The notes under the pieces were generated by a model that did not search any database, had not been told where the DNA came from, and worked only from the letters and a program-made list of their open reading frames with translations. Shown here one piece after another: positions 1-64,000 of a stretch of DNA of 64,000 nucleotides. The position numbers were made by a program, and so were the translations under genes. Source of the DNA: Cyanidioschyzon merolae (taxonomy: Eukaryota); assembly GCA_000091205.1 (NCBI GenBank), contig AP006500.2. The stretch is one strand, 5' to 3'. Position 1 is the first letter of the stretch; each line of letters starts with the position of its first letter.

Positions 1-979
1 TCACTGCGCTCGGTATCGTGAGCCAGAGCAAGGCCGTCGACGCCGAGGCAGTGTCTGCCGTAGCCTGCGGGTACACGCGACACGTCGCTAGCTGCCAGAG
101 CGTCTCTAGCCAGTTGCTCGTATCTGACGACTGTGAACGACACTGCATTTCACCGTGCCGACTAGGACGCTGGTTCCGGGTTGTCGCCCGAGAACTCAAG
201 CGGCCACCTTGCAGAAAGTTTGGCGGAAAAGTCATTTCCGAGTATTCGTACCTTGGGCCGCTTCCACACGCCTCGTTCAGGTTCTATCAAGTCTTTGGTG
301 AGATCCTTCTCCTCTACATAGCGTTCGGGCTGTGCGGTTACGAGGTTCGGGGTCGGTCGGTTTTTCGGTTTTGTGTCGAACGCAGCGTTGCGTTGACCGG
401 GGCGGGTCAGCGGTCGAACGCTTGCTTGACCAACCTGACGTATCGGTGAAGTTGCTCGCGAGTGCGCTCATGTATTTACCAACTTGCTTGCCTCTATTAT
501 GACAAAATCATAACTTGCTTGCTTGCTTGCACGCTACTCGAGCGCAAACACTATGACAGCGTTTTCGCTGCCTCTACCGCGAACCGCCCCCGCGACTGGC
601 AGTACGCTTTTGCGTCCACGAACGGACCCAGTCAGTCAGCGAACAAGAACTTCGCCTCGTCATATGCGGGTCTAGGTATCGTTTCGCTTCATGGACCAGC
701 TGTTCGAGTAGGTCTTTCAGCGAGTCTGGTGCCCACGAGAATCGCCATCCAGATGAACCGCAACAACTGCGGTTCCAAAGTGCGCAGCACCCTCAGCATA
801 CGCTGAAACCCAGGTACTGCCCGGGCATGGTGTACCTGATGCGGCTCACCAGTGTGTTTCCTGGACTCGGGAGCCCGTCGACGATGCCCACGCCTCCTCG
901 CGAAAGCGTCAAAAGCGAAAGCGGACATGGACGAGCCGCAACGCCAACACTGTTTACAACGCGAATGCTCGCAGAGCTT

Positions 980-2035
980 CTATCGCCGGCCGTGCCATGA
1001 GCGTTTTCGAAAGTTGATAAACCAGTTAGATACTTGTTTCACAGACACACCAGTCTGGGCACTCAACTGAACCTTCACCGCGTCACTTGGGTACGGGTGA
1101 TCCCAGTGCGCTCTGGCCCAGGCTTCGAATACAGCAACGGCATGCTTCGGAAGCGGGGTTCTTCGGCGCGAGCTCGCCCGAGCAGGTTCTTGCGAGAGCG
1201 CTGCTCTCAGCGGAGTCGTTTGATCACCGGATATCGAACGATTCGCATAAGCGTCTCGTCTCAGTATATGTGTGGTCGGAGTCGGTCGTCCCGAGGCAGG
1301 GCACGCACATGTCGATGACGGGCATGCCGTGCTCCGATGCACTCCAGCGGCACGCGGAGATTCCCAGCAAGGAACGCCTTCGTGGAGCACACTGGTGCCC
1401 GCACAGATACGTAGGCGCTCGATCGGCAATGCCCTGGGCAGTGGTGTCGTTTCCGCAGTCCCGAGGCGCCCAGTCGAGCGTCCGTCGAAACCGTTGCGAC
1501 TGGGCTCGACCGCAGAGCTTGAAGCTGCGCCCGCCGAGAAGCATGGACGCAGTCGGCCGCGTTGAATGGAGACAACATCAGCCTCATGGGCGGAGTGTTT
1601 GCATTCGGTGAGGTTCTGGCCTGCAAGTGCCGACTCCCCAGCTTCGTAACAGATCACATCGCGCTGAAAGTCATCCGAGTTTGCTGACCCGGGCGCAGAG
1701 CACAATGCTCGCTCACCAAGAAACAGGAGCGCAGCCTCGACATGAGCGTCGCCGTCATCGTCGAATGCACCACCTGTTCCCGCGTGCTCGACATGGCTCG
1801 GCGCTTGCCAGTCACAGACCTCGCTTTCTCTGGACGAAAAACGCAGACCGGGCTGCGCTGGAGCAGATGTTACAGATCCTGCTACTTGATTCGAATCCCA
1901 TTTCCGCGGTATGTCTTCCGACTTTCTCGTCTTGTAGGTCATGAGGGTTTCGCTTGACCAGCGCTTGACGGCAGCAGTCAAGTTGACTACTGAGTTGACC
2001 ACTCCGTCTGCGGGTGAGCGCTGTCGACCATGCAC
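980..2035 (-). CDS. TALE-class homeobox protein, KNOX-like. The C-terminal homeodomain reads '...HWDHPYPSDAVKVQLSAQTGVSVKQVSNWFINFRKRSW'.
   Basis: A 351-aa ORF. Its C-terminus carries a TALE homeodomain with the three-residue loop extension (P-Y-P) and the WFIN-x-RKR recognition helix. The spacing and the 'xHPYPS...NWFINxRKRxW' pattern resemble KNOX-type homeodomains. A (CAT)n/(ATG)n repeat lies just upstream of the ORF start. Confidence 0.6.
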   Translation of the reverse strand: MHGRQRSPADGVVNSVVNLTAAVKRWSSETLMTYKTRKSEDIPRKWDSNQVAGSVTSAPAQPGLRFSSRESEVCDWQAPSHVEHAGTGGAFDDDGDAHVEAALLFLGERALCSAPGSANSDDFQRDVICYEAGESALAGQNLTECKHSAHEADVVSIQRGRLRPCFSAGAASSSAVEPSRNGFDGRSTGRLGTAETTPLPRALPIERLRICAGTSVLHEGVPCWESPRAAGVHRSTACPSSTCACPASGRPTPTTHILRRDAYANRSISGDQTTPLRAALSQEPARASSRRRTPLPKHAVAVFEAWARAHWDHPYPSDAVKVQLSAQTGVSVKQVSNWFINFRKRSWHGRR

Positions 2036-3175
2036 TAACCACCACCATCATCATCATCATGATCATAATTGCTCTGGGATGACGTCGTTTTCATGATGAC
2101 CAGTTCACAACCCTTGCCCGAATCCCTTCTCCTGCTCGCAGCGGCTACCAGGGCATACCCCCAGCGGCATCCACACAGCCGCTGCAGCAGGCGCTCCAGC
2201 TGATCCGCGCGACCCGCGTACGGAGGGCGCCAAGCGCGCGTGCATGACGACCGTTCCGCGGGCCACGCTGACGGGCGCGATCGATGCGCCGCGGCGATCG
2301 GACGCGAACGCTATAGGCGAGTGGAATATTCATCCATAATTGTTCTATAATGTTCTAGTTTCTTGATTGGCGAATCACGCCCTGGAGCGCGGACGCTGCA
2401 CTGCGGATGATGCCGCTTGCCGCACCAGCGTGCGCTGCAGGCTCCTATCCGAGGTGTGCGTGCGTGCGTGCGTGCGTGCCTATATACAGGGACACGTGTC
2501 CCGTAGAGGCATACGTGTCCGAATGGCGATTCTTCGAAGCGTCACGCATGCGGCAATAGCGGGTGCGTTTCGCCTCTGAGAACGTTCCGCTACGTCTCCC
2601 AGCGTACTTGTCAGTGCAGCGTATACCTCGTGCGTCTTCGATATTCAGAACTGCACGCATACGCATGCGTCGTCGTGCGCACAGAACCTGCACGTCGACG
2701 GAAACAAAATGCATAGGATGGAATGCCCTGCTCACGGTCGCTTTGATGGGCTGTCTTCGGGCCACCAGGCGTCATCAGCAGCAGAGCGATCTCATGGTCA
2801 TCGGGCGGGTGCTGTAGGCATGCACTCGAGCAACCAGTACTGACCTGGTACCCGCGATTGCCAGTCTCCCGAGCATCTGCAAGCGCATTATACTACACGT
2901 GTCCTGGTCTGCGATCTGCGCAGGTCGGGCCCCGGGTCCCAGAGCACGAGGTCGTGAGATCAATGCACTCGCTCACGGAAGCTTCAGAAAATGATGGATA
3001 GCGGCTTGAACATGTTTGGGGAAACCGCGCGAAACAGCAAGAGATGCCCGGCGAGCACATATACGCAGAACTGGACGAGAGCATTCCTGATTCGCAAGGG
3101 CATCCCTAGGGGTGCGCGCACACCGTCCCGTACCACGCGCTGGGGCTTGCCGGTCTCGAGGACGCATCCTGCCCG

Positions 3176-5149: not shown

Positions 5150-6539
5150 TAAACTCTATTTGCTTCCTCCGCGAAGACGCGAACCTGTAAAGTGCTATGT
5201 GAGGATGCCAGTGCGCACTGGCACTTGCAGACAGCAGCGGCAACAAGCGCTGCTTCTCCTGGTTCAGTTGACTCCCGAACGCGGTGCCATGTGCATAGTA
5301 CAGAGGTATCAAGGTTTGAGCCATCATGGTGAAGCTCAACGGGTCTTTTTAAAATACGACCTGAGCAAATCTTGATCGAAGAAAACTTGCCGAATATACG
5401 CAACCCGCATCAACACCGTATGCGTAGACACTCCGTGGTTACGGGTACACAAAATCAAGTCTCGGAAAAGTCATCGGAGCATTTTGAGGCGGTCTGCTGG
5501 GTACAAGTCGAGGCAGACGCAACCTGCATTGCCGAAGTTTGACACACACGAACCAAGAATGCTCGCAGCAGTTTGTACACATCGCTTTGCAGCGAACCAT
5601 ACCGAAGCAATGGAGCTTCATCTGGAATGATTTCGTCAGCGTCTGTTGCTTCCCGATTCACCAGCAGTGGCTTTGATGCGCTAAGCAGGAAGCCAGTGCA
5701 GAGGACGATTGTGCACCAGGTTGCTTTGGACCCAACAAGAGTCCAGCATGGCCCGCGCAGTACTTGAACTCGTACGCGCGGTTGCGCAAGCATACGATGC
5801 ACTTGTCTGCAACCTGAGGAGACCTGCCAGTGTACCCTGGTCTGCAGAGGCGCGTTCGCATGCATTAGTCTCAATGCGGAAAAGAACGAACGGACACTGT
5901 TCATGGCTCGCTTGTGGACCCGTGGCCACCCAGAGAAACGACGGGGAACGAAGGCAAGCTAAGCGGGTTCCTGAGGGAGAAGCTCTCGATTCGAACGCGA
6001 GGACGTATCAAGAATTTTGGTGATTATGTTCCCGAGCCTTAAAGCGCTCATGAGAATCGTCCTCTCCTCCGAAAAGGATCGGGTTTCCACGAAATGCTTC
6101 CCCGGCAGCGTCACTGAAATCCACGCACCAGCGTCAGCAGCGAACGCGAATAATGCCACACGAACAATCCAGGCATACGGAATCAGGCAACTCGGAAACG
6201 TGTCATTCACGGCCTCGGAGATGTGGTGCTACCAGGAGGCACAAGCACAGGCAGCAACCGGAATCGTTGCAGAAGCAACAATGCCGGTACTTGCAATCAT
6301 TCCAATAGGAGTGGCTGCGGCTGTGCCAGATTGAAATGCGAAACTGCATTGCTTGCTCGGTTCTTTTCCGTCGTTTTCTCGCCCAGCCTCATGCGGTGTA
6401 CATCCGCTACATTCGAAGCGGAGCAACAGCGGCTTACGAATGCACGCGTCGGTTCAGGATCCGGAGTCGTCTCGTCCGAGAGGCTCCTTGGACGCGTCAC
6501 CGTTGCATTTCCGCATGCCATCGGAATCGAGATAGCTCG

Positions 6540-6960
6540 CGATGCCGCTGGAAACCAATTCCAAAATTAACCGATACCATTCCCGAGTTCATACAATGAA
6601 GCTTCGAGCCTGCCCCTCTCGTTACGTTTAGCATGCTCAAATCACACACGCTCCAAGTATTCGATTTCTCTGTTTCAAGGTCGCTCGTGGGCGGAGCATG
6701 TGGCGCTCCGGCACCGACCACGAAAGAGAATCGGTGTCATCTGCTTGGCAGCTTGTTGACCAGCGTATACCGCAAATTCAGTCAACCTGTAACGTCAAAT
6801 GAGAGAGATCGAATGTGTTCGAAAGACAGGTTCTCGCTTTTCTGTGGTCGTCGTCTACGCGGGATTCTACAGTACCATGACGCCTCTGACAGCGTATGCT
6901 CCAGGATGCTCCAGTCGGTTGCGCTTGCCCGCAAGAGGGTTTCTGAGTCAGACCTGACTC
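6540..6960 (+). repeat. Dispersed repeat family 2, copy 1 (~450 bp, carrying a small conserved ORF)
   Basis: It aligns by eye to 47730-48160 (+) and to the reverse complement of 42330-42800. All three share 'taaccgataYcRttgtYcaatgcaYaRgta...catgYtcaaatcac...ttcaaggtYtcgatYt...tttcaag'. An ORF starts at 6633 (MLKSHTLQVFDFSVS...). Confidence 0.65.
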
Positions 6961-7599
6961 ATCTACGGGATCGCATCCAGTGGAGCGTGTAGCATCGCTT
7001 TGCATGAGGCGAGCGTTGTCGGACGGGAGTCTCTCGACCTGTTCCCTGGTCTGGCGTCGCCTTCGAGGCCTTGGTGCATCATGGAAAACATCGCGCTCCA
7101 CGAACCCGCTATCGAGTGGACCAGCGTGCGCTTCCACGCCCAGCAGACAGCGTCCTCGACGCTGGGAGCGCCCTGAGGAAGCCCCTGATCGTAGAGTACG
7201 GCACGAGACGCAGAGACGCGAGGCGGGTATCGAGGATAGCCTGCAGTGCCTGCCACGAGCGTGTACCGAGCGATGACGCAAGCGTTGACGCGCCACAGGG
7301 CAGCCTTCTCATGAAGACGTGTGGTCTGCATATCGTTAGACCTGAACGCAGCCACGTGTCGTCTCTGCGAAGGGCGTCTCCAGGTTGTCTGGCGAAAGGA
7401 TGAGAGTGGCAGGCGAAACGTCGATCACAACTTTTGCCAGTGCACGGCATGCGTTGACAACAATCGGCAGCTACGACACCGGGATTTGAACACCACCACC
7501 TATATCCATCGACTGCTATCGACGGAGCTGGCGGCAAAGGGGAGACCAGCGTGTTTACACCCGGAGATTCGAGGAAACACAGGGAAACATTCTTGGGGA

Positions 7600-8290
7600 A
7601 AGAGGCCACAAACGCTGGTGCGCATAAGAATAGGACGAAACGAAAACCTCGGTGCGTACGTCTTTATCAGTGGATCTGTTCTATCTGGTACTGGCGTGAA
7701 CAGTGAAACAGAAAATGGTTCACAACCATGGACGGTAGATATATCCACTCACCCGCTGACGTCTCCCGGCCTTTTTGACCGACCCTCTGCTATCTGCTCC
7801 AGCTTTTCCTTCTACTCTTCGAGCCTGAGAGGCTGCCCCACAAACTTGTATCTCGTCAGCCCCGGGGGTCTCGTCTTCAGCACCACAAATCTCCTGGTAT
7901 TGATGACAGCGCTGAGGTCCTGGTACACGAATCCGATGCGTTTGCTGCCGCTGATAGAACTCATCAGTGCAAGAATTCCTCGAACTCGCGCACTCTGTTC
8001 CACTATAGTCTCATTGTCGTCCAGCCCAACAAACACCTTTTCCCGCCTATTTCCCTACTTATTCTTTTTCGTCCTCATTTGCCCCGTTTCGCTGGATGAT
8101 TGACGAGGAGCGGATCTTATTCGTTGTTTTCCAGCAGCCAGCGACACAGTGCATCCACGATCCCCGATTTAGGCATCAATACCTATCCCCTTGACTTTTT
8201 ATTTCTTCAACTGAACACACTGGGAACGCGTCTTCTATAACCCGAGAAAAGTCATTTTTAATGAAACGCATCTGGTAACGGAACACTATT
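7600..8290 (-). repeat. Truncated, diverged copy of the Fanzor/TnpB-like element 3' region (copy B)
   Basis: The ORF at 7812-8036 (-) reads 'RIGFVYQDLSAVINTRRFVVLKTRPPG', homologous to the '[27 protein letters not shown]' segment of copy A. Its downstream part (7600-7810) aligns by eye to the post-stop blocks of copies A, C and D ('gacgtctcccggcctttttgaccg'; 'ccatggttgtgaaccattttctgtttcactgt'). Upstream, 8040-8290 aligns to copies C and D. Confidence 0.7.
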
Positions 8291-25045: not shown

Positions 25046-25359
25046 GTCTGTCTCGATGCCCTCCCAAATTCAAGAAATAGGAGTCCAGCTCGAAGAACCA
25101 AGCTTCACCAAGTAGCCTTTTTGAGCAGAGCACGTCCCTGGTTCGACAAATGGGAGTACCACGAACGACAACCGCCTTTCAAAAGAAAAACGCTGTCACT
25201 GGCCGTATACAGTCGTGGCGGCGAATGCGCGTAGACAAAACGCCTCCAACTGACGCGCAGACGCTTCCGAGGCTTTCTCGACCGGCCACCCACGACTGCT
25301 TCCAATTGTTTCTAATATAGTTCCACTTTGGGATGTTGTCCAACAATGTTTTCTCATGT

Positions 25360-25884
25360 CTACGCTGGAGGTCTCTTCTCCAGCACCGCACATCTCCGGA
25401 TATTGATTGCGGCGTTAAAGTCTCGGTTCACAAACTCCATCCGTTTCTTGCCATCGTTGGTTGTACTTACGAATGCGAGTAGCCCTCGAACTTTCGCCCT
25501 CCTTTCCATTTGCTCCTCCGTCAGCGGTCCGAACTTTTTTATATCCTCAGGGCTCCGCTGGCACTTTTCCATATCGACCCGCTGGAGTGTACACCTCAGC
25601 CCGTGGTGTGTATACGATGTTCGGAACTCATCTACAGGTATCGTAACGAAACGCCTTGCGCACTGCTTGTACGTTCTTGTCGTTGGAGCTGGCGTACACC
25701 CTTTTCGGGTCTTCCAGCGCCCTGCTCCGCGTGCTACTACGAGCCTCTGACTTTTATCCTCTTTGAAGGCGCTCATTGGAAAAATTCGCAGATGCACGCT
25801 GCCTCCCACCGTATAGATGAATACGTAGACGAGCCCAAAAGGGCTTTGTGTACTCTTTCCACAGCGCCTCACAATGAGCAACAC
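25360..25884 (-). CDS. TnpB/Fanzor-like nuclease, C-terminal segment (OrfB Zn-ribbon region + RuvC-III)
   Basis: '...[30 protein letters not shown]...[28 protein letters not shown]'. The Zn finger appears degenerate (HH...C...C instead of CxxC...CxxC). Confidence 0.7.
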
Positions 25885-25975
25885 GAATTTCCATGAATTT
25901 CAGAAACGCTTTAAAGTCCGCTCCGCGGCAAGTCACCTCGCTCAAAGCTTCCCGGTGATCCTTCATTCCATCGTT

Positions 25976-26578
25976 CTACGTCTCAATTTTCTTCCTTGCA
26001 TTCATGATTCCCGATTCTCGATAGTATCTCGCTCTCGAGAACCTCAACAGACGCACGTCTTTCTGACGCAAGTTGCCGTCGGTATCATCTCCCCCACGCT
26101 TGGGTACAGCGACGGTTATAATATTCGTGTTCCCGGGGTCCGCGCCACCGACAAAGCAATTCTCATGCACTTTCCGCGTCGCAGGACCCGCCTCCTTCTT
26201 TTTTTCATGCTTCGTCGCGCCAACCGTAAAGTCGTTAGCTTGCACTTTCTGTGTCGCAGGATCCTTCTCCTTCTCATCTTCATGCTTCGTCAGCGGCGGA
26301 ACTGGACGATCCACCTTCAACCGCCGATAGTGTACACACAGGGCTACTCCATCGGTTTCGATCAACCCAGTGAACAACTTTTGCTTGCTTATTTTGAGAC
26401 GTTTGAAAACGAAGATATTCTTCCAGTGCATCTCCCTGTTCTCACCTGTGAACTCTGCCCTCCTTACATCGAACTCGGGACTGATCTCCTTCATGATGCC
26501 ATGAAGGACTCTGGAGCCGGTAGTAACAAAATGTGACTTGATGGTGCACATTGGAACGACGTTGGAGCGCTTCCCCAT
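25976..26578 (-). CDS. TnpB/Fanzor-like nuclease, central segment with the RuvC-I motif
   Basis: '...[51 protein letters not shown]'. It contains an internal tandem duplication of ~66 bp (26160-26290; '[16 protein letters not shown]' / '[16 protein letters not shown]'). It is out of frame with the downstream segment, indicating a frameshift or a small intron. Confidence 0.65.
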
Positions 26579-29500
26579 TAGGGCCGCCTTCCGTCTCTCC
26601 CACTCTTCATTTTTTCGTCACTCAGCTTTATTTCCGCCTTGCGTTCTGGCGCTCGGTCCAGAAACGCGAAATAGCACAGAATGAGGCGATAGTATCTTTC
26701 ATTATCTTTTTTCAGCTCTGATATCTTTTCTCTTGAATTCGCCAGCCCCGAGACTGCACGGTGCTCTTGTATAACAGCACGGATTACAGAAGCTTCATTC
26801 GTGCTCCTGCGTGATTTCTTCTCGTCGACGAATTCGATCTAATCTTCATGCTTGCGATCGTTCGTGATACCGTTGATAATCGCCCATATTCCTTTGCGAG
26901 ACAGGCCCGGGTAAATTGCAAACACGGCGCATATCATAAAACGTTCGAGGTTCATCCTCAAATGCTTCTTCAGGTTCGTGAGGTACTTCATCGCCCCGTA
27001 TGTGTAAGTATCCCGGTCACCCCTGTATCGAGTACCCTCGAAGCGGAATTCCGCGAAGTTTTCGTGGAGGACGTGCACTAGCTCATTTTCCGTCCGCGTT
27101 TCCCCTGTGCCAAGCATCAGGTGACGAATAAAGGTCTTGTCGAAAACTCGTCCGGAATCTCGACTGTTTCCGTATGCGCCACGTCTTCGTACATCTCCCT
27201 CGCCATATGCATGACTCCTAAAGAAGCCTTTATAACACTCATGGGGTACGAATCGACACGGTTCCTGATAGCGTCTCGCAACTTTTCCTTGTAGGGATCC
27301 TTGATATGTTTACGAAGACAGGCGTTTACCACCATCTCGTCGTACTTTCGTCTTTCGTACAGCATGTAAAGTCGGGTCTCCTGCCTTAGCTTCTTCGTCT
27401 TCTCCTGCTCCACTTGGCTCGGCACTCTGTTTCGCTTTCTCTGGCAGCCGGCGAGGTTGTACCACCGGTATCATCCACTTGCTTCTCCATACGTTTCCAT
27501 TTTTGAAAAAGAACGCGCTTTGATCGCTTCTGCTATGTAGCGCGAAAAATCAATCGAATACACCCCCCCTGAGGATTGAAACACAATGGAACTGAGAAGC
27601 TATACTTGCGGCCACTTTCACACAAATACACCCTGTACGATAGAACAACACGCGAAAGATCAGAATCGCGTTTCCCTTCAACGGCGACATGCGCGTCATG
27701 TCTCGTGACTGCCGGATCTCCCGGGTGCGCGTATCGAGCGCACTATGTACCAACAAGAACATAGACTAACGATAAACTACCAACGATACAAAAATTCCTT
27801 TCCCCTCTACGATAAACGTTGAACGTGGGAAACCGCTTCCGTACTGTCGAAAGTTAGCCTTCTTGACGGAAGGTCCCGCGAGCCGGACGAGTCTGTCACG
27901 TTTGTGTTTCATGCTGCACTCAGTGGCAGGTACTTCAGTGGCAGGTACTTCAGTGAAATCTGAGCCACTCGTCCGCAACGCAGTTTCCTCTGAGACTAGG
28001 GGCAGTTAAGCTGTGTCTGGGCGTCGCCCATGTTGCAACTATCTCCGAGCATATCGCTTGGCGCTGCTGCAGGCAGTAGGGCTGTCTGCCCAGTTTTCAG
28101 GCTCCCAGAATGACAATTAGCTCTGATTCCGTGTCAGGTGTAGTATTCGTCGGGCCGACACCATCGGGAGTATGGCAAAGCCGTTCTGGCTACGTGCAGC
28201 ATCTGCTCCAGCGGTGTAGGCGCTGCAGCGGGTGCTCAGCGCAGGCACTCGGCACACGGTAGAACGTTCGAAACGATCAGTATACCCGAGATGAAGAGTA
28301 AGTAATGGAACTTGAAGGTAGGATGCATGATGATGGGCGCTTCCCCGAAAGCCATTATCTATGCCGCAATCTGAGATCCATGGTTCATGTAAACGTTTTG
28401 ATATCGAAAAAAAAATCGCTACCGCCATTGTCATCCCCGCGGATCCATCAACTGGTGATCGCCTCGTCCATGATCTGTTTCATTGCACAGGTCGCTCGAT
28501 GGACAAGCGTTCCTCAACTGCGCGCTTGAGATGAGCGATCGGGAAAGCATCCATCGATCTAGGTCCTGCCTCCAAGTTCCGTGGTGCATACGTCTCCTCC
28601 GAGTGTACTCGTTATCTCTTATGTTCTGTGGTATGCGTCGAGGCTGTTGTGAGCGTTTGCGATAGCGCGTGTAGCGTCGATGCGCACGCAGCCCCGAGGT
28701 CATGTCCACGAAGCGGTTTGTGTGCACGGCCGCCGATGTATTGCTAGTGAAACATGTCGATACAGTGGATCGGGAGTGCTCTGGATGCACTGGTGCTGTC
28801 GGCAGCTGGGGAATGGACACTTGTTTCTTCTCGGATATGGCAGCGTCGTGATGCCTGCAGACCAATTTCCTAGACGAGAATCGGGATTCATAGCATAGAC
28901 GCTTGAACGCTGCGCCCTATCAAACCGCTGGTAGCGGAGCCTGTGGCAGCGCGCAACCCTATACGCCCGCTCGTGCCGCGGAGCATGGCGCAGGCTTCAT
29001 GGTATTCGCGCATGCGTTCAAAAAAGGGTCCCGGAGTGCATCGCTGCCCGTTCCACTGAGGTCGCAGGCTCACCGATACCGCCTCATCGATCCTGGGGCC
29101 GTTCATATCAGTGGATGGAGGTGCTGCGTGATGAAACTACGCAGAGAGGTTTTACCTGGATTCAGACTGCAGCAGGAAGCACGCCTTCGTTCAGTCTCGA
29201 GAGTGCTTGCCTCAGCAGCAGCGCAGTGTCATTTGCCATGAAAACCTACGCAGGTGTCCCAGCGGTCCAGCGTCGCGAGAGGCTACGGATAGCAGCTCCC
29301 CCCGGATCGATGCAGATGCAATTGCGGCTAGGCGAAACCGATATCTGTGCCCGGCACGAATCGTGAATGTGGATACGTATACGGATGCATCCATAAGTGC
29401 GTCCATCGCTCGCCAAGGTCGATGCAGCGTCCGTTATTGCGCAAAAAACGACGATTCCGTGGACCTTCAGCGAAAAGGCGAGCTGCGCTCCACATTCCAT

Positions 29501-42949: not shown

Positions 42950-43650
42950 ACAGCTAGAACATAGTTCCGGAAAAGAATCGAACTGGATGAACAAAGCGAG
43001 TCATCCCCTACTCGATTTTATCGTCAGCGAAATGAGAAATGTTCTACGATAATTGAGGGTGTATGAATACATACATACGCAGACGCCTCCCAGCCTTGTT
43101 TTGACCGGTTCCCCGATACCGGTTTCAGCTTCTCCCTGTATACTTCGATCCTGAGAGGCTGCTGGACAAAAGTTGGACCGGGGCAGCTTCGAGGGTCACG
43201 TCCCCGGTACCAAACTTCTTCTGATATTGATGGCGGCGTTGAAGTCTCGGTTCACGAACTCCATGCGTTTATTGCCGCTGGTGAAGCGTATCATTGCAAA
43301 GATCCCTAGAACTCGTACCCTCTGTCCCAGTACAATCTCGCTATCGTCCCATCGGACAAACAGCTGTTCTCGAGTATATATCCCCTGTTCTTGTTCTTCG
43401 TCACTTGCTTTTCTTCGCTAGATAGTCGACGAGAAGAGGATCTTTTTCGGTTTTTATCCCGGTCGCCAGCGACACCAGCCCTCTAGAATCCCCGACTCCC
43501 ATGTCCATACGGTTCGCTTAGATTTCTTATTTCTTCAAATGAACGCTTTTCGGACGCTTCGATTACAAACCGAGAAAAAGCGTTTGATGCGACGCACCCG
43601 GAGATGGCGCACAATTCAAGAAAGCGTCTACAATCTGACACGAGCCCACC
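42950..43650 (-). repeat. Truncated, diverged copy of the Fanzor/TnpB-like element 3' region (copy C)
   Basis: The reverse complement of 43201-43260 encodes '...[20 protein letters not shown]'. The reported plus-strand ORF 43173-43421 is the antisense frame of this. The flanks align to copy B ('cttcgatcctgagaggctgc', 'gcagacgcctcccagccttgttttgaccgg', 'ttatttcttcaaatgaac...ccgagaaaaagcgtttgatgcgacgcacccgg'). Confidence 0.7.
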
Positions 43651-47335: not shown

Positions 47336-47729
47336 CGTTCATTCGTGTCGGCAGCTCGGCAGCACGAGCGCTAGTCAGAACGGCGCTTGCACCCAGAAAC
47401 GCGCTTGAACGACAGAAATATTTGTTAAGCGAGCAATGGGGTCTCGCTTGCCAAACCAGCCGGAGCAATGTTCGGTTGTTGGCGAACTCTACACCCGTGT
47501 CAGAGTAAAATGGGACACTGAACCGCTCGCTCTCTTCATTCCCATGGATTTTCTTACGACAGATCTTAGATGTCCAGCATCGACGTGAGCAGTGCGGCAG
47601 TACGAGATGATGGACTCATGCGTACTTTAAGGATGCTTGGACGTCTTTTCGGAGCGACTTGCCCGAGTGTATGTCGCAGGGATTCGGTACGGCATTGTCG
47701 TACTGATGGTCCTCGCCACCCTCGAACGA

Positions 47730-48160
47730 GGGTTCGTAATCTAACCGATACCGTTGTTCAATGCATAGGTACAGGCCTCCGCTGCCTCAAGTTTCTAGCG
47801 TGAAACATGTTCAAATCACGCATTCTTCAAGGTTTCGATCTTTGTGTTTCAAGTCGTGGATACAGTAAATCCGCCTTCGGATTCACGACGAACAAAAGCT
47901 CCATGTCGCGCCTCAACGACTTGTTCACAGGCGCGTACCCAAAGTCCACTGGACTTGGAACCTCAAATAATAACCGATTCCAGTCGATAGACAAATCATC
48001 GTTTCTTGCTGACGATTCGCGAAACCGGATTCCACAGTAGCAGGACGCTTCTCGACAGATTTGTTTCCAGTGGCTCCAGTTTCTTCTGTTTGCACGGGAA
48101 AGGGCCTTAAATTCAGAACTGAGTCATCACAGCGATCGATTCCAGCTGAGCATACGTCAC
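47730..48160 (+). repeat. Dispersed repeat family 2, copy 3
   Basis: 'ctaaccgataccgttgttcaatgcataggta...gtgaaacatgttcaaatcacgcattcttcaaggtttcgatctttgtgtttcaagtcg'. An ORF at 47807-48040 begins 'MFKSRILQGFDLCVSS...'. Confidence 0.65.
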
Positions 48161-49015
48161 CTCTTTGCAACAAAACAGCGTAGACCGATCGACATTTCTC
48201 GACTTGTTCTTCAACCTGGATTTTCCTTCCGGTACTTTTTTTCATCTCGGATAACATTGCATTCCGCAAATCCTCGATCGAATGCGACGCAGTGCGCTAG
48301 CGTATGCAGCGGACAGTGTACTCGCCCAGGGCATGTATCCGAACTGGCGCGTGTGAACGTCGGGCACGGCACCGGGCGCGGAAACGGTGGCCTGCATCGA
48401 GGCGCGCCTTGTGTTCGCGTCAAGCTCATGTACCGAACGATAAAGCAAGCGCTCACGCTCCACAGAACGGATACCAGAGGCGGAGGAGAACCTGTGATGG
48501 GCGTGCCAGAGAACATCACCCCAGCTCAATATCACCGCCGCAATGGGTGCACCGCGGCTTCATACGAAAGAAGATGAACATGGCAAGCGAGACGTAGATT
48601 GCAAGTTTCGTCGATACATGGAATTCGTCAACAGCAGCCGGAATCAACGACATCGGGACATGAACGCTGCCAGCAACAGCCTTTAAATACTAACAACACG
48701 GTACACGATAGAACCTATGCAGCAACCAGTATATCCCAGAGCACGTATGGAGTTTGGGGCTTGGAAGCAGGGCGCGGAATCATGTATGCTTCACCGCGCG
48801 CTGATATCGAGCGCACTGTCGGGGAACGCTAGCGTGCTTCAACGTTTTTGTCACAGAAACAAGAATGCTGACAACGGGACTGGAGGGAAACGATAGACCG
48901 GCGTATTCAAATCCGGAGAAAACGTGTTGAAAAGGAAGCATTCGCAGAGAACGCCCTCCTAGACGAGAACTGATGACACTGGGAACAGATCCAGACTTTA
49001 GCATGTACGCTTTCG

Positions 49016-49912
49016 TCAGCAAAAGTGGACCCCTTCCATTTTATTCTTATATAGATGTAGGCCCGGGCTGCGCGGAACACGCGCACCCCCGCCCGGGTTT
49101 CGAACCTGCATCGTGCATGTGCGACGAGGAACCTTGTACCATTTCCGCCATCCAAGGGCGAGGTTTAAAACACACAACAGGTACGCAGTGCTGCAAACGC
49201 TGTTCTCGGAAGCATCGCTCGGGCAACAGCGTTCCCACATGGAGAGCGGGAACGTCCCTCCGCCACCTCCTTGGGAACAGTGCCTTTCGCAGTGCGCTGC
49301 TTTGAAACACCACAGGGACGGATACGGCTTGCCGCAAATCACTCCAGTTTGAACCGCACTCGGATTCGGGTTCCACGCAGGTACGCGGACCCTCCGTCGA
49401 AACCCCAATGAGCGTACGCAATGCAGCGCTGTGGCGTTCTCCCGCAGCACCCCAACATGACCAGCACTGCCAGACAGTCCCAACTTGCGGCCACAAGCGT
49501 TGCAGGTACCCGTATTGTCGCGACGCGTTTCGACCGGATAGCCTCCCTGGATATGATGCTTTCGAACAAAAGCACTCAATTCCGATGCGCCGCAGTTAGC
49601 ACAGCCCCGCGAACGGATGCTCGCAGCAGCACATATGCGGCGGCCTTGGGCCCAATACCACGGGGTATGTCTGGGCGATTCCACTGCCGGACACTGTACT
49701 GGCTCGTTGTGCATTGGACAAATGCGAACCGACGCAACGAAGCGCACTTGCTTGCGACATGGAATGCGTACCACTGAATGGCGGCAACTGGTGCGACCCG
49801 TCGCTGCACTTACATGTTCGCCTCCAGGAATATTCTCTGCAGAATTGTTTGAGGCGGACAGACGCGTATGCACCTGCAGTAGCGAAGATGAGCCAGACAA
49901 GTGCCGATCCAT
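49016..49912 (-). CDS. Possible Cys-rich (zinc-binding?) hypothetical protein
   Basis: A 298-aa ORF with clustered CxxC pairs ('CANCGAS...CNACGRKLG', 'CGKPYPSLWCFKAAHCERHC'). ORFs of similar length overlap on the other strand, so coding status is uncertain. Confidence 0.2.
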   Translation of the reverse strand: MDRHLSGSSSLLQVHTRLSASNNSAENIPGGEHVSAATGRTSCRHSVVRIPCRKQVRFVASVRICPMHNEPVQCPAVESPRHTPWYWAQGRRICAAASIRSRGCANCGASELSAFVRKHHIQGGYPVETRRDNTGTCNACGRKLGLSGSAGHVGVLRENATALHCVRSLGFRRRVRVPAWNPNPSAVQTGVICGKPYPSLWCFKAAHCERHCSQGGGGGTFPLSMWERCCPSDASENSVCSTAYLLCVLNLALGWRKWYKVPRRTCTMQVRNPGGGARVPRSPGLHLYKNKMEGVHFC

Positions 49913-62663: not shown

Positions 62664-63300
62664 TCCGTGGCCGGGAGCGTGTCGTCGAATGCTGTTTCGC
62701 GGTTGATGGCAGGGGCGTTGACGTGCGTTCATTTGAATGAACGAAAAAAATCCAAAGGAAATGCATGGAGATAAAGGTCGGGGATTCCAGAGGGCTGGCA
62801 TCTCTGGGTACCGTGAAAGGACTGAAAATTCTCTTCTCGTTGACTATCGGGCGTAGGAGAGCAAGTGACGAAATGGAAGAAGAGAAGATATCATCGAGAC
62901 AAGGCGTTTGTCCTACGGGACGATGACGGGACTATAGTGGGACGGAGGATGCGAGCTCTAGGAATCCTGGCAATCATGCGTTTCACTGGAGGCAATAAAC
63001 GCAAGGAAACCGTGAACCGGGACTTCAACGCCGCCATCAATACCAGATGATGCGCGGCGCTGGAGACGAGACCCGAGGAGCAGAGGCGAGCGAGCTTTGT
63101 GGGGCCCCCTCTGAGGCTCGATGTCTACGTCGAGGAAAGTGATACCGAGCGCAGGCGGTCGGTCAAGAAAGGTTGGGCAGCGTCTGCGCGTGGACACGTA
63201 CGTAGATCTTCCATGGCTGCGAAACGTTTGCGTTTACTGTCATGTTTAGTAGAGTTTTTTGGTTTGACACGTCGTCTACAGCGACGATAGATCCCAGATT
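62650..63300 (+). repeat. Truncated, diverged copy of the Fanzor/TnpB-like element 3' region (copy D, plus orientation)
   Basis: The ORF at 62865-63050 (+) reads '...[33 protein letters not shown]'. Downstream, 'gtcggtcaagaaaggttgggcagcgtctgcgcgtggacacg...ccatggctgcgaaacgtttgcgtttactgtca' matches the post-stop blocks of copies A and B. Upstream, 62690-62865 matches copies B and C. A perfect 15-bp inverted repeat sits at the 5' boundary (62625-62663). Confidence 0.7.
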
Positions 63301-64000
63301 GCGGGATGGAATCTGGTATTCGGGAAAGCATCGAACATGCAGCACCCTACCTTCAAGCTTTGTAACCCCGAATGCTTCTCGTATATATTGGTAGTTTCGT
63401 ACAGTCTATTGCGCATCGAGTGCCTGCCCTGAGCACCCGCTACAGCGCTTATACCGCTGGTGCGCATGCAGCACAGTAACGGAACGCCTTTGCCATACGA
63501 CTTGGGGCGTCGCCTGGAGGCGAACTGCCCCTGAACCAGGCTCCGGTCTTGTCGCCGCTGCGCGACGCTCTGGAGAAACCAGACAGCAGCTAGGATGAAT
63601 CCTGAGCGCCGCCTCTCACGTTCGCGATGTTGTACGCAAAGCGTTGTCGGTTGGCGACGCGGGCTTTTGCTTGGCATTCACCAGTGAGCAGGTGTGCAAG
63701 GCACCGGGCCTTCCGACGAGAAGGTAGAATGTGAGTTTGCTGGCCGCTACTGAGCGTTGGGGCTCGCTCAGTTACGAGACCGACGCCTCAATCGATACGA
63801 GCGCGGATGGATTGGACGGGCGTATGCGGCCTGTGGGGTGGTCTTGTGCCACAGGCGCTTCCGCTGACGGGTACGCGGTGCGCTCGGAGCTCGGGTGCTC
63901 TGCGCGTTTGTTACGGAGTATTGGGGTCAGCGCTGGACACGTTCAGGTACGGAGTAGGAAAATAAGCATGCATAGGATGGGGGTTTGTTGTCTTGTGCGC

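Follow-up and report, generated by a model that had tools for sequence, protein, structure and literature searches.

The 64-kb window analysed here (the whole stretch of DNA, 64,000 nucleotides) lies on chromosome 18 of Cyanidioschyzon merolae 10D and contains a dispersed repeat, which we call the mariner-type family after the transposon class to which it is assigned below. Eight long reading frames of the window are identical to annotated 10D proteins with CMR locus tags. The first-pass annotation had described a repeat of ~450 bp present in three copies, each with a 'taaccgatacc' block followed by a small open reading frame (ORF) conserved at the protein level. The three segments are true homologues: over the coordinates first given, their global pairwise identity is 64-66%, compared with 56-57% for shuffled controls, and their alignment scores far exceed those of all shuffles. 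All three small ORFs were found as described, and the block was confirmed in the first copy, with counterparts in the others. However, the family had been underestimated in both number and length. Self-comparison of the window revealed a fourth copy that had been missed, and the similarity runs far beyond 450 bp, with a repeat unit of ~1.38 kb and individual copies of ~1.35-1.57 kb (designated c1 to c4, Table 1).

The first-pass annotation had also suggested searching for further copies, terminal inverted repeats (TIRs), and target-site duplications (TSDs). A metagenome scan seeded with the motif LQVFDLxVS itself recovered 61 related loci, which encode a relative across nearly the whole unit and cluster at >=93% identity into 23 distinct copies, 4 of them being the window's own loci; given the motif-based seeding, 23 is a lower bound on the true number. 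None of the 23 copies is intact, and the longest open stretch comprises 273 codons. We aligned 22 representative copies and derived a majority-rule consensus of 1380 bp, to which the copies are 66-76% identical. Conservation in this alignment steps from ~0.47 to 0.70 at two sharp boundaries 1380 bp apart. The consensus starts with CACCCGTGTCAGATTAAAATGGAAC and ends with the reverse complement of CACCCATGTCAGAATAAAATGGAAC, forming 25-nt TIRs that match at 23 of 25 positions. An exact TA flanks the 5' side in 8 of 20 copies and the 3' side in 9 of 21, and the majority bases in both flanking columns are T and A; this fraction is approximately that expected from an original TA after ~27% decay per site. 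In the window, c2 has TA on both sides, and its 5' TIR is detected with 2 mismatches, for which the chance expectation is 0. Two loci of the c1 cluster lie ~17.7 kb apart on a single contig (L006 and L007; Ga0078972_1001419, 61377-70559 and 79125-88307); the c1 region may have undergone segmental duplication in a related strain, unless the assembly is at fault.

The 5' part of the consensus encodes a transposase remnant. Its translation matches the NCBIfam IS630 transposase (E=4.7e-18, residues 24-236) and Pfam DDE_3 (E=6e-10, 39.6 bits, exceeding the gathering score). The paired N-terminal helix-turn-helix (HTH) domains of an IS630-type transposase are present, in the consensus only: HTH_33 (E=4e-4) and HTH_Tnp_Tc3_2 (E=1e-3) both match residues 71-123, which include LQVFDLSVS, and HTH_32 matches with E=9e-3. 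BLASTP against the transposase of PUl-1, a mariner element of Pythium ultimum carrying a Fanzor1 gene (Bao & Jurka 2013, PMC3627910), gave E=3e-6 and aligned the second HTH (HTH2) as well as the segments AIDETAF/ALDEAAF and IMDNIAFH/LLDNCATH. The first and second catalytic aspartates, D1 (AIDET) and D2 (IMDN), are both represented in the consensus, and the IS630 profile is covered only to position 238 of 299. The remnant ends just past D2, the sequence beyond it is Fanzor-derived, and the third catalytic residue of the DD(E/D) triad is absent. Since there is neither a complete catalytic triad nor an intact copy, we assign the family to Tc1/mariner-IS630 (ITm) as a non-autonomous member. The HTH stretch of the transposase is exactly MLKSRILQVFDLSVSRQLVGAAIRAAGLTRKK, so that the conserved start of the small ORF is the second helix-turn-helix of the transposase. 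The 'taaccgatacc' block lies ~25 codons upstream of HTH2 in the same ancestral frame and encodes (K)ITD(I); the frame translations at the block in the four window copies are KLTDTI, NLTDTV, and IITDII, and that of the consensus is RKITDIII.

The last ~450 nt of the consensus encode, in another frame, KKPVIVGYGTGRGNGGGHRGEPSVPVKGMYRAMKQAF...TTVKCHRCEG...LCMKCV...RPAYL. This segment contains the C-terminal motif of Fanzor1/TnpB, [TS][TS]-x-x-[C4 zinc finger]-x(5,50)-RD (Bao & Jurka 2013, PMC3627910), in the form TTVKCHRC...LCMKC. It matches PF07282 (Cas12f1-like TNB) with E=7e-8 and 33 bits, exceeding the gathering score, and the final 60 profile positions of NCBIfam guided_TnpB with E=2.7e-4. 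When the 162-codon open stretch of c4 was used as the query in an exhaustive HMMER search, an intact Fanzor1 of 551 aa, P0230, was found, with the motifs IETDG, GLDPG, and GYGTGRGNGGGHKGEPSVPVK. The Fanzor fragment has its closest relative in P0230, which shows 73% identity to it at the DNA level over 116 nt and is encoded at positions 5569-7224 of locus L065 (JGI 3300035702, contig Ga0399894_004485). The contig of P0230, of 7.7 kb and 55.7% GC, carries neighbouring RNA-ligase, 2H-SAK, and Peptidase_S74-domain genes, and may be viral or originate from a relative within the Cyanidiales. BLASTP aligned the consensus with residues 313-513 of P0230 only (E=8e-39). The upstream frame-0 sequence alone gave E=2.7 against P0230 and contains no counterpart of its GLDPG (RuvC-I). 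Neither a RuvC-I aspartate 125-275 residues upstream of the motif nor an N-terminal WED/REC region was found, and the Fanzor part is a gene fragment only. At the 3' end, where Fanzor1/TnpB elements encode an ωRNA, the last 200 nt are conserved at 0.69-0.70, compared with 0.70-0.77 elsewhere in the element, and an Rfam scan of the window detected no RNA family.

As P0230 aligns only from residue 313, the Fanzor segment starts a few codons past the second aspartate of the transposase. The distance from the D2 codon to the 'AAD' codon of Fanzor is 62 nt in 19 of 22 copies, and the two frames are out of phase, indicating that the founder already had both parts out of phase. This spacing bears on the idea that the element was an autonomous transposon with a functional fusion protein, combining the HTH domains and two aspartates of a transposase with the C-terminal RuvC and zinc finger of Fanzor. 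At least 23 copies share one uniform structure, frame 0 of the consensus is open over ~345 codons, and a few copies (c4 and the metagenomic ORFs P0222 and P0223) do hold both parts in one frame, all of which would suit a fusion. However, the same 62-nt spacing, and hence an out-of-frame founder, rules out an in-frame transposase-Fanzor fusion; moreover, the transposase lacks its third catalytic residue, Fanzor lacks its RuvC-I aspartate, and the substitution pattern carries no sign of purifying selection. We consider a functional fusion very unlikely.

A different view of the two parts is that the copies are decay products of a single Fanzor/TnpB gene, in which LQVFDLxVS would be RuvC-I and a spliceosomal intron of ~109 nt would join the exons. 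The window copies contain the C-terminal CxxC..CxxC and RDxNxxxNI motifs and match PF07282 weakly (E=0.0013). In addition, hhalign against the CMe-1A family, a Fanzor1 family of the same host, paired KKPLIVEYGTGRR with QRLVVAYGAGR (E=0.016), and dropping alignment columns 506-617 restored the frame in c1 and c2. Yet in the 22-copy consensus the frame with LQVFDLSVS matches IS630 and HTH families, not RuvC, which, together with the alignment of P0230 from residue 313 only, rules out the RuvC-I assignment. The candidate 109-nt intron (CA/GTAGCA...TTCCAG/, slashes marking its ends) between the small ORF and the downstream frame was rejected because the frame shift is accounted for by a single nucleotide: the window copies differ from the consensus by 1 nt in the A-run right after GLT(R/T)K, which places the ORF beyond ~codon 30 out of the ancestral frame and leaves no need for an intron. 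Introns are present in only 0.5% of C. merolae genes (PMC1955436). A single decayed Fanzor gene is thus most improbable, and we retain two joined gene remnants.

We then asked whether the small ORF itself behaves as a gene. Some features are those that real, fast-evolving short genes or micropeptides riding on the repeat might show: an ATG or GTG followed by 77-119 open codons in the same relative frame is retained by three of the four copies in the window, and conservation along the element peaks in the motif region. However, the ratio of nonsynonymous to synonymous differences (pN/pS) is 0.92 in the ORF frame, a value equalled or undercut by the two other frames (0.92 and 0.75), and the conservation at the protein level claimed earlier did not hold up; the downstream part has a pN/pS of 0.75, a mild signal. 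Codon positions 1, 2, and 3 have diverged from the consensus almost equally, both in the transposase part (0.244, 0.257, and 0.268) and in the Fanzor part (0.281, 0.270, and 0.279). Up to ~nt 830 of the element, the transposase frame has the fewest stop codons; beyond that point, other frames do. Measured from the aligned ATG, which is kept in 12 of 22 copies, the small ORF ranges from 3 to 174 codons across the 22 copies, it is stopped at codon 4 in c4, and its sequence past ~codon 30 is out of the ancestral frame. A word-index search found no homologue of the c1 small ORF among 5.8 billion proteins, and the ORF is itself absent from a 15-billion-protein collection that holds the annotated C. 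merolae proteome; the same type of search with the C-terminal ORF of c1 returned its own allele only. Between the window and three metagenomic alleles of the c1 locus, the density of single-nucleotide polymorphisms (SNPs) is 6-8/kb in c1, resembling intergenic sequence (7-12/kb) and exceeding the coding regions of SOD and PCI (0-4/kb). On these grounds a short gene is hardly credible. The residues common to the copies reflect common nucleotides, not selection on a protein, and the 119-aa small ORF is spurious.

The first-pass annotation had itself named dN/dS near 1 together with frameshifts between copies as the mark of spurious ORFs, and this is the pattern observed. It had offered three identities for the repeat. 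A small fast-evolving gene family is not supported, given the pN/pS of ~0.9, the nearly equal codon-position divergence, the variable length and start codon of the ORF, and the absence of a homologue. Support is likewise lacking for a promoter plus 5' exon module, as the block upstream of the ATG shares its ancestral frame with the ORF start. Different stop codons separate these two features in c1 and c2, as results from independent decay of one longer ORF. The closest of the three was a miniature inverted-repeat transposable element (MITE) with a vestigial ORF: the element is non-autonomous, has TIRs and TA flanks, and its ORF is a transposase remnant, but it measures 1.38 kb and contains two gene remnants. 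MITEs likewise depend on transposase supplied in trans, yet they are shorter than ~800 bp and non-coding, and we therefore class the element as a deletion or chimeric derivative, not as a true MITE. Prokaryotic gene callers applied to metagenomes predicted a 172-aa 'hypothetical protein' at 6778-7296 (minus strand) and a 260-aa protein at 7321-8103 (plus strand); lying within or across transposon remnants, both are almost certainly spurious.

We conclude, with a probability of about 0.9, that the sequence under study is a fragment of an old, extinct, non-autonomous Tc1/mariner-IS630 transposon with a Fanzor1 gene remnant, of which the window holds four copies. The element is a chimera that combines a truncated transposase gene with a fragment from the 3' end of a Fanzor gene; it has both TIRs and is incapable of moving alone. 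We reconstruct its history as follows. A founder of ~1380 bp with 25-nt TIRs would have inserted at TA, duplicating the TA. The 5' two-thirds of this founder carried an IS630-like transposase gene with two HTH domains and the first two catalytic aspartates, joined out of frame, a few codons past the second aspartate, to the last ~200 codons of a Fanzor1 nuclease gene and its 3' flank. An autonomous relative recognising the same TIRs would have mobilised the element in trans; the family reached at least 23 copies, all of which then decayed neutrally to their present divergence from the consensus. The small ORF is a chance survivor of the dead transposase gene, which happens to have stayed open in the region of the second HTH, with its first ~30 codons in the ancestral frame and the remainder shifted by the 1-nt indel in the A-run.

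Several observations weigh against this interpretation. An autonomous parent, that is, a complete transposase with or without a full Fanzor between the same TIRs, was not found, and we therefore infer the mobilisation in trans and the origin as a deletion derivative of a composite mariner-plus-Fanzor parent. No transposase lies near P0230 in L065, the only intact relative of the Fanzor part. The junction in the transposase frame also reads ...AYSP, like YSPxLNPIE, which makes the breakpoint uncertain by ~15 codons. The copies were ascertained via LQVFDLxVS, so the apparent conservation of the motif over 22 copies is in part a product of the sampling. In individual copies the TIRs are heavily decayed, and only the 5' TIR of c2 is found with <=3 mismatches. 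None of the 22 frame-corrected single copies matches DDE_3 at E<=0.01, and only the consensus is significant against Pfam and NCBIfam. Finally, no transposase or Fanzor chain in the PDB was matched by any of the queries (P0014, the family profiles, the consensus parts, and P0230).

The closest known counterpart is PUl-1. Both elements have ~25-nt TIRs flanked by TA, and both encode a transposase that contains paired HTH domains and D1 and D2 motifs of the DDE_3 type, with a Fanzor1 coding sequence located downstream on the same strand inside the same TIRs; in pairwise comparison the similarity extends from the transposase part to the Fanzor C-terminus (E=1e-7). PUl-1 is 3.6 kb in length, whereas in the 1.38-kb C. 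merolae element the transposase is cut after the second aspartate, ~310 N-terminal Fanzor codons are gone, the two parts are out of frame with each other, every copy is dead, and the TIR sequence is unrelated. CMe-1A, the other Fanzor1 family compared, occurs in the same host and shares the Fanzor1 C-terminus, and CMe-1-like pieces adjoin or interrupt three of the four window copies. It has no meaningful DNA similarity to the mariner-type family (the best match is 29 nt), no reported TIRs or TSDs, a length of ~3.2 kb, and ORFs that are still intact. In the window, a hidden Markov model (HMM) derived from 22 full-length CMe-1A-type proteins detected CMe-1-like pieces alone and missed the mariner-type family. 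The Fanzor fragment of the mariner-type family represents a lineage other than CMe-1A, close to P0230.

Two descriptions of C. merolae repeats were compared with these elements. A 3.2-kb interspersed repeat with 253 copies, reported by Nozaki et al. 2007 (PMC1955436), is probably CMe-1A. The same study listed eight class II transposase-related elements whose nearest relatives were bacterial transposases, with E values from 0.071 to 6e-7. Such weak values are as expected of decayed IS630-like copies; the eight elements, which we could compare by description only, were described without a family structure, TIRs, a TSD, or a link to Fanzor. The mariner-type family belongs to a well-known kind of element but is itself new, or at least has no visible earlier description.

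These results affect the annotation of the genome. The 119-aa ORF, as well as the 172-aa and 260-aa metagenome predictions, should be masked as transposon remains. With four copies in one 64-kb window and at least 23 in Cyanidioschyzon assemblies, class II elements in the 'transposon-poor' C. merolae outnumber the eight recorded in 2007. C. merolae also once harboured a second, P0230-like Fanzor1 lineage inside a mariner-type element, in agreement with the known link between Fanzor1 and Tc1/mariner transposons. Only the non-random proximity of short CMe-1-like elements, described after Table 1, might lead to something new.

Table 1. Positions of the mariner-type copies, their parts, and neighbouring CMe-1-type elements in the window (cons, position in the respective consensus).
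Feature	Position	Strand	Remarks
c1	6318-7702	+	Holds the 119-aa small ORF; BLASTN with the 1380-bp consensus: cons 6-1293 = 6323-7620, 72% identity; ends from the 22-copy alignment
c1 5' TIR, degenerate	6318-6344	+	Aligned to the consensus TIR
c1 IS630/Tc1-mariner transposase remnant	6396-7100	+	Two HTH domains, stops and frameshifts; consensus translation matches NCBIfam IS630 and Pfam DDE_3
c1 'taaccgatacc' block	6568-6578	+	(K)LTDT in the ancestral transposase frame
c1 small ORF, 119 aa	6633-6992	+	Codons 1 to ~30 are transposase HTH2 in the ancestral frame; remainder out of frame
c1 HTH2 motif	6648-6728	+	Consensus ILQVFDLSVSRQLVGAAIRAAGLTRKK; LQVFDFSVS of the first-pass annotation; aligns with VAQSFNLCVSERTLGRIL of the PUl-1 mariner transposase
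c1 transposase, first catalytic D	6847-6861	+	
c1 transposase, second catalytic D	7078-7089	+	
c1 Fanzor1/TnpB C-terminus remnant	7110-7566	+	GYGTGRG, CxxC..CxxC zinc finger, RDLNTTTYI (RuvC-III), RPACL; TBLASTN with P0230 residues 315-513, E=1.9e-10
c1 3' TIR, degenerate	7676-7702	+	
c2	47492-49057	+	cons 1-1198 = 47492-48697 (76% identity); cons 1186-1370 = 48863-49047
c2 small ORF, 77 aa	47807-48040	+	
c2 TA flanks	47490-47491, 49058-49059		
c2 insertion, 165 bp	48698-48862		
c3	43034-41681	-	cons 35-1354 = 43000-41708, 71% identity; ends from the 22-copy alignment
c3 small ORF, 84 aa	42466-42720	-	
c4	22017-20664	-	cons 2-1374 = 22016-20670, 73% identity; small ORF broken by TGA at codon 4
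Full-length CMe-1A	25173-28406	-	cons 1-3169, 84-88% identity; ORF with frameshifts and stops
Short CMe-1-like (Fanzor1-derived) element	7708-8250	-	CMe-1A cons 2833-3092 = 8002-7747, 72% identity; family-1 HMM E=5e-21; 3' end abuts c1 3' TIR
Short CMe-1-like element	43035-43601	-	3' end abuts c3 5' TIR
Short CMe-1-like element	~62671-63230	+	
CMe-1A 5'-end fragments, part common to TE-N2_CMe	63265-63520, 28539-28642	+	First directly downstream of a short CMe-1-like unit

The first-pass annotation had noted that two copies lie close to Fanzor-related sequence. This adjacency is real for c1 and c3, where the neighbour begins within ~6 bp and ~1 bp, respectively, of the ends of the element. The Fanzor-related repeat it referred to is CMe-1A, a Fanzor1 element with a 3169-bp consensus (PMC3627910 supplement), to which CMe-1A fragments elsewhere in the window also align. 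The full-length CMe-1A copy carries a 75-bp tandem duplication (26141-26290). The units abutting c1 and c3 belong to a short CMe-1-like family of ~560 bp, which consists only of a diverged CMe-1-like Fanzor C-terminus and a distinct tail. At both junctions the short unit has its 3' end against the outer edge of a TIR, and the two arrangements share one geometry. That the mariner-type family inserted into and split a short CMe-1-like element was rejected, as the far flanks of c1 and c3 contain no remainder of it.

A similar proximity was observed outside the window. In the metagenomic loci L045, L036, and L015, a short unit lies <=50 bp from a truncated copy of the mariner-type family. In total, 4 of 7 short units are adjacent, compared with ~2% of sampled sequence lying that near a family boundary, a proximity unlikely to arise by chance (rough p ~5e-6); however, the junction positions are heterogeneous. 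The 5' flank of the unit next to c3 contains a TIR-like match, CGTGTCAGATT (empirical p=0.004); TIR remnants seen by eye beside other short units (L062, L032, and window position 63230) were unsupported in a permutation test. Guide RNAs of Fanzor/TnpB are thought to extend into the DNA just past the right end of the element. If so, the guide of the abutting copies would match the mariner TIR, and the short CMe-1-like elements might insert preferentially at or near the termini of the mariner-type family, as a fossil of RNA-guided targeting or homing. We consider this unlikely and treat targeted insertion as a lead, not a finding; the simplest reading is ordinary transposon nesting in the limited intergenic space where a compact genome tolerates insertions.

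The insertion in c2 lies between imperfect direct repeats of ~14 bp, ATACTAACAACACGG and ATGCTGACAACGGGA, and the sequence at 48696-48791 is similar to the CMe-1A 5' end (cons 65-159, 71% identity). CMe-1A and TE-N2_CMe are reported to lack a determinable TSD. In the three metagenomic alleles of the c1 locus, the short unit at 7754-8250 contains 0 SNPs, compared with 6-8/kb in the adjacent mariner-type copy and 7-12/kb in intergenic sequence, a contrast drawn from small numbers and alleles that are not independent.

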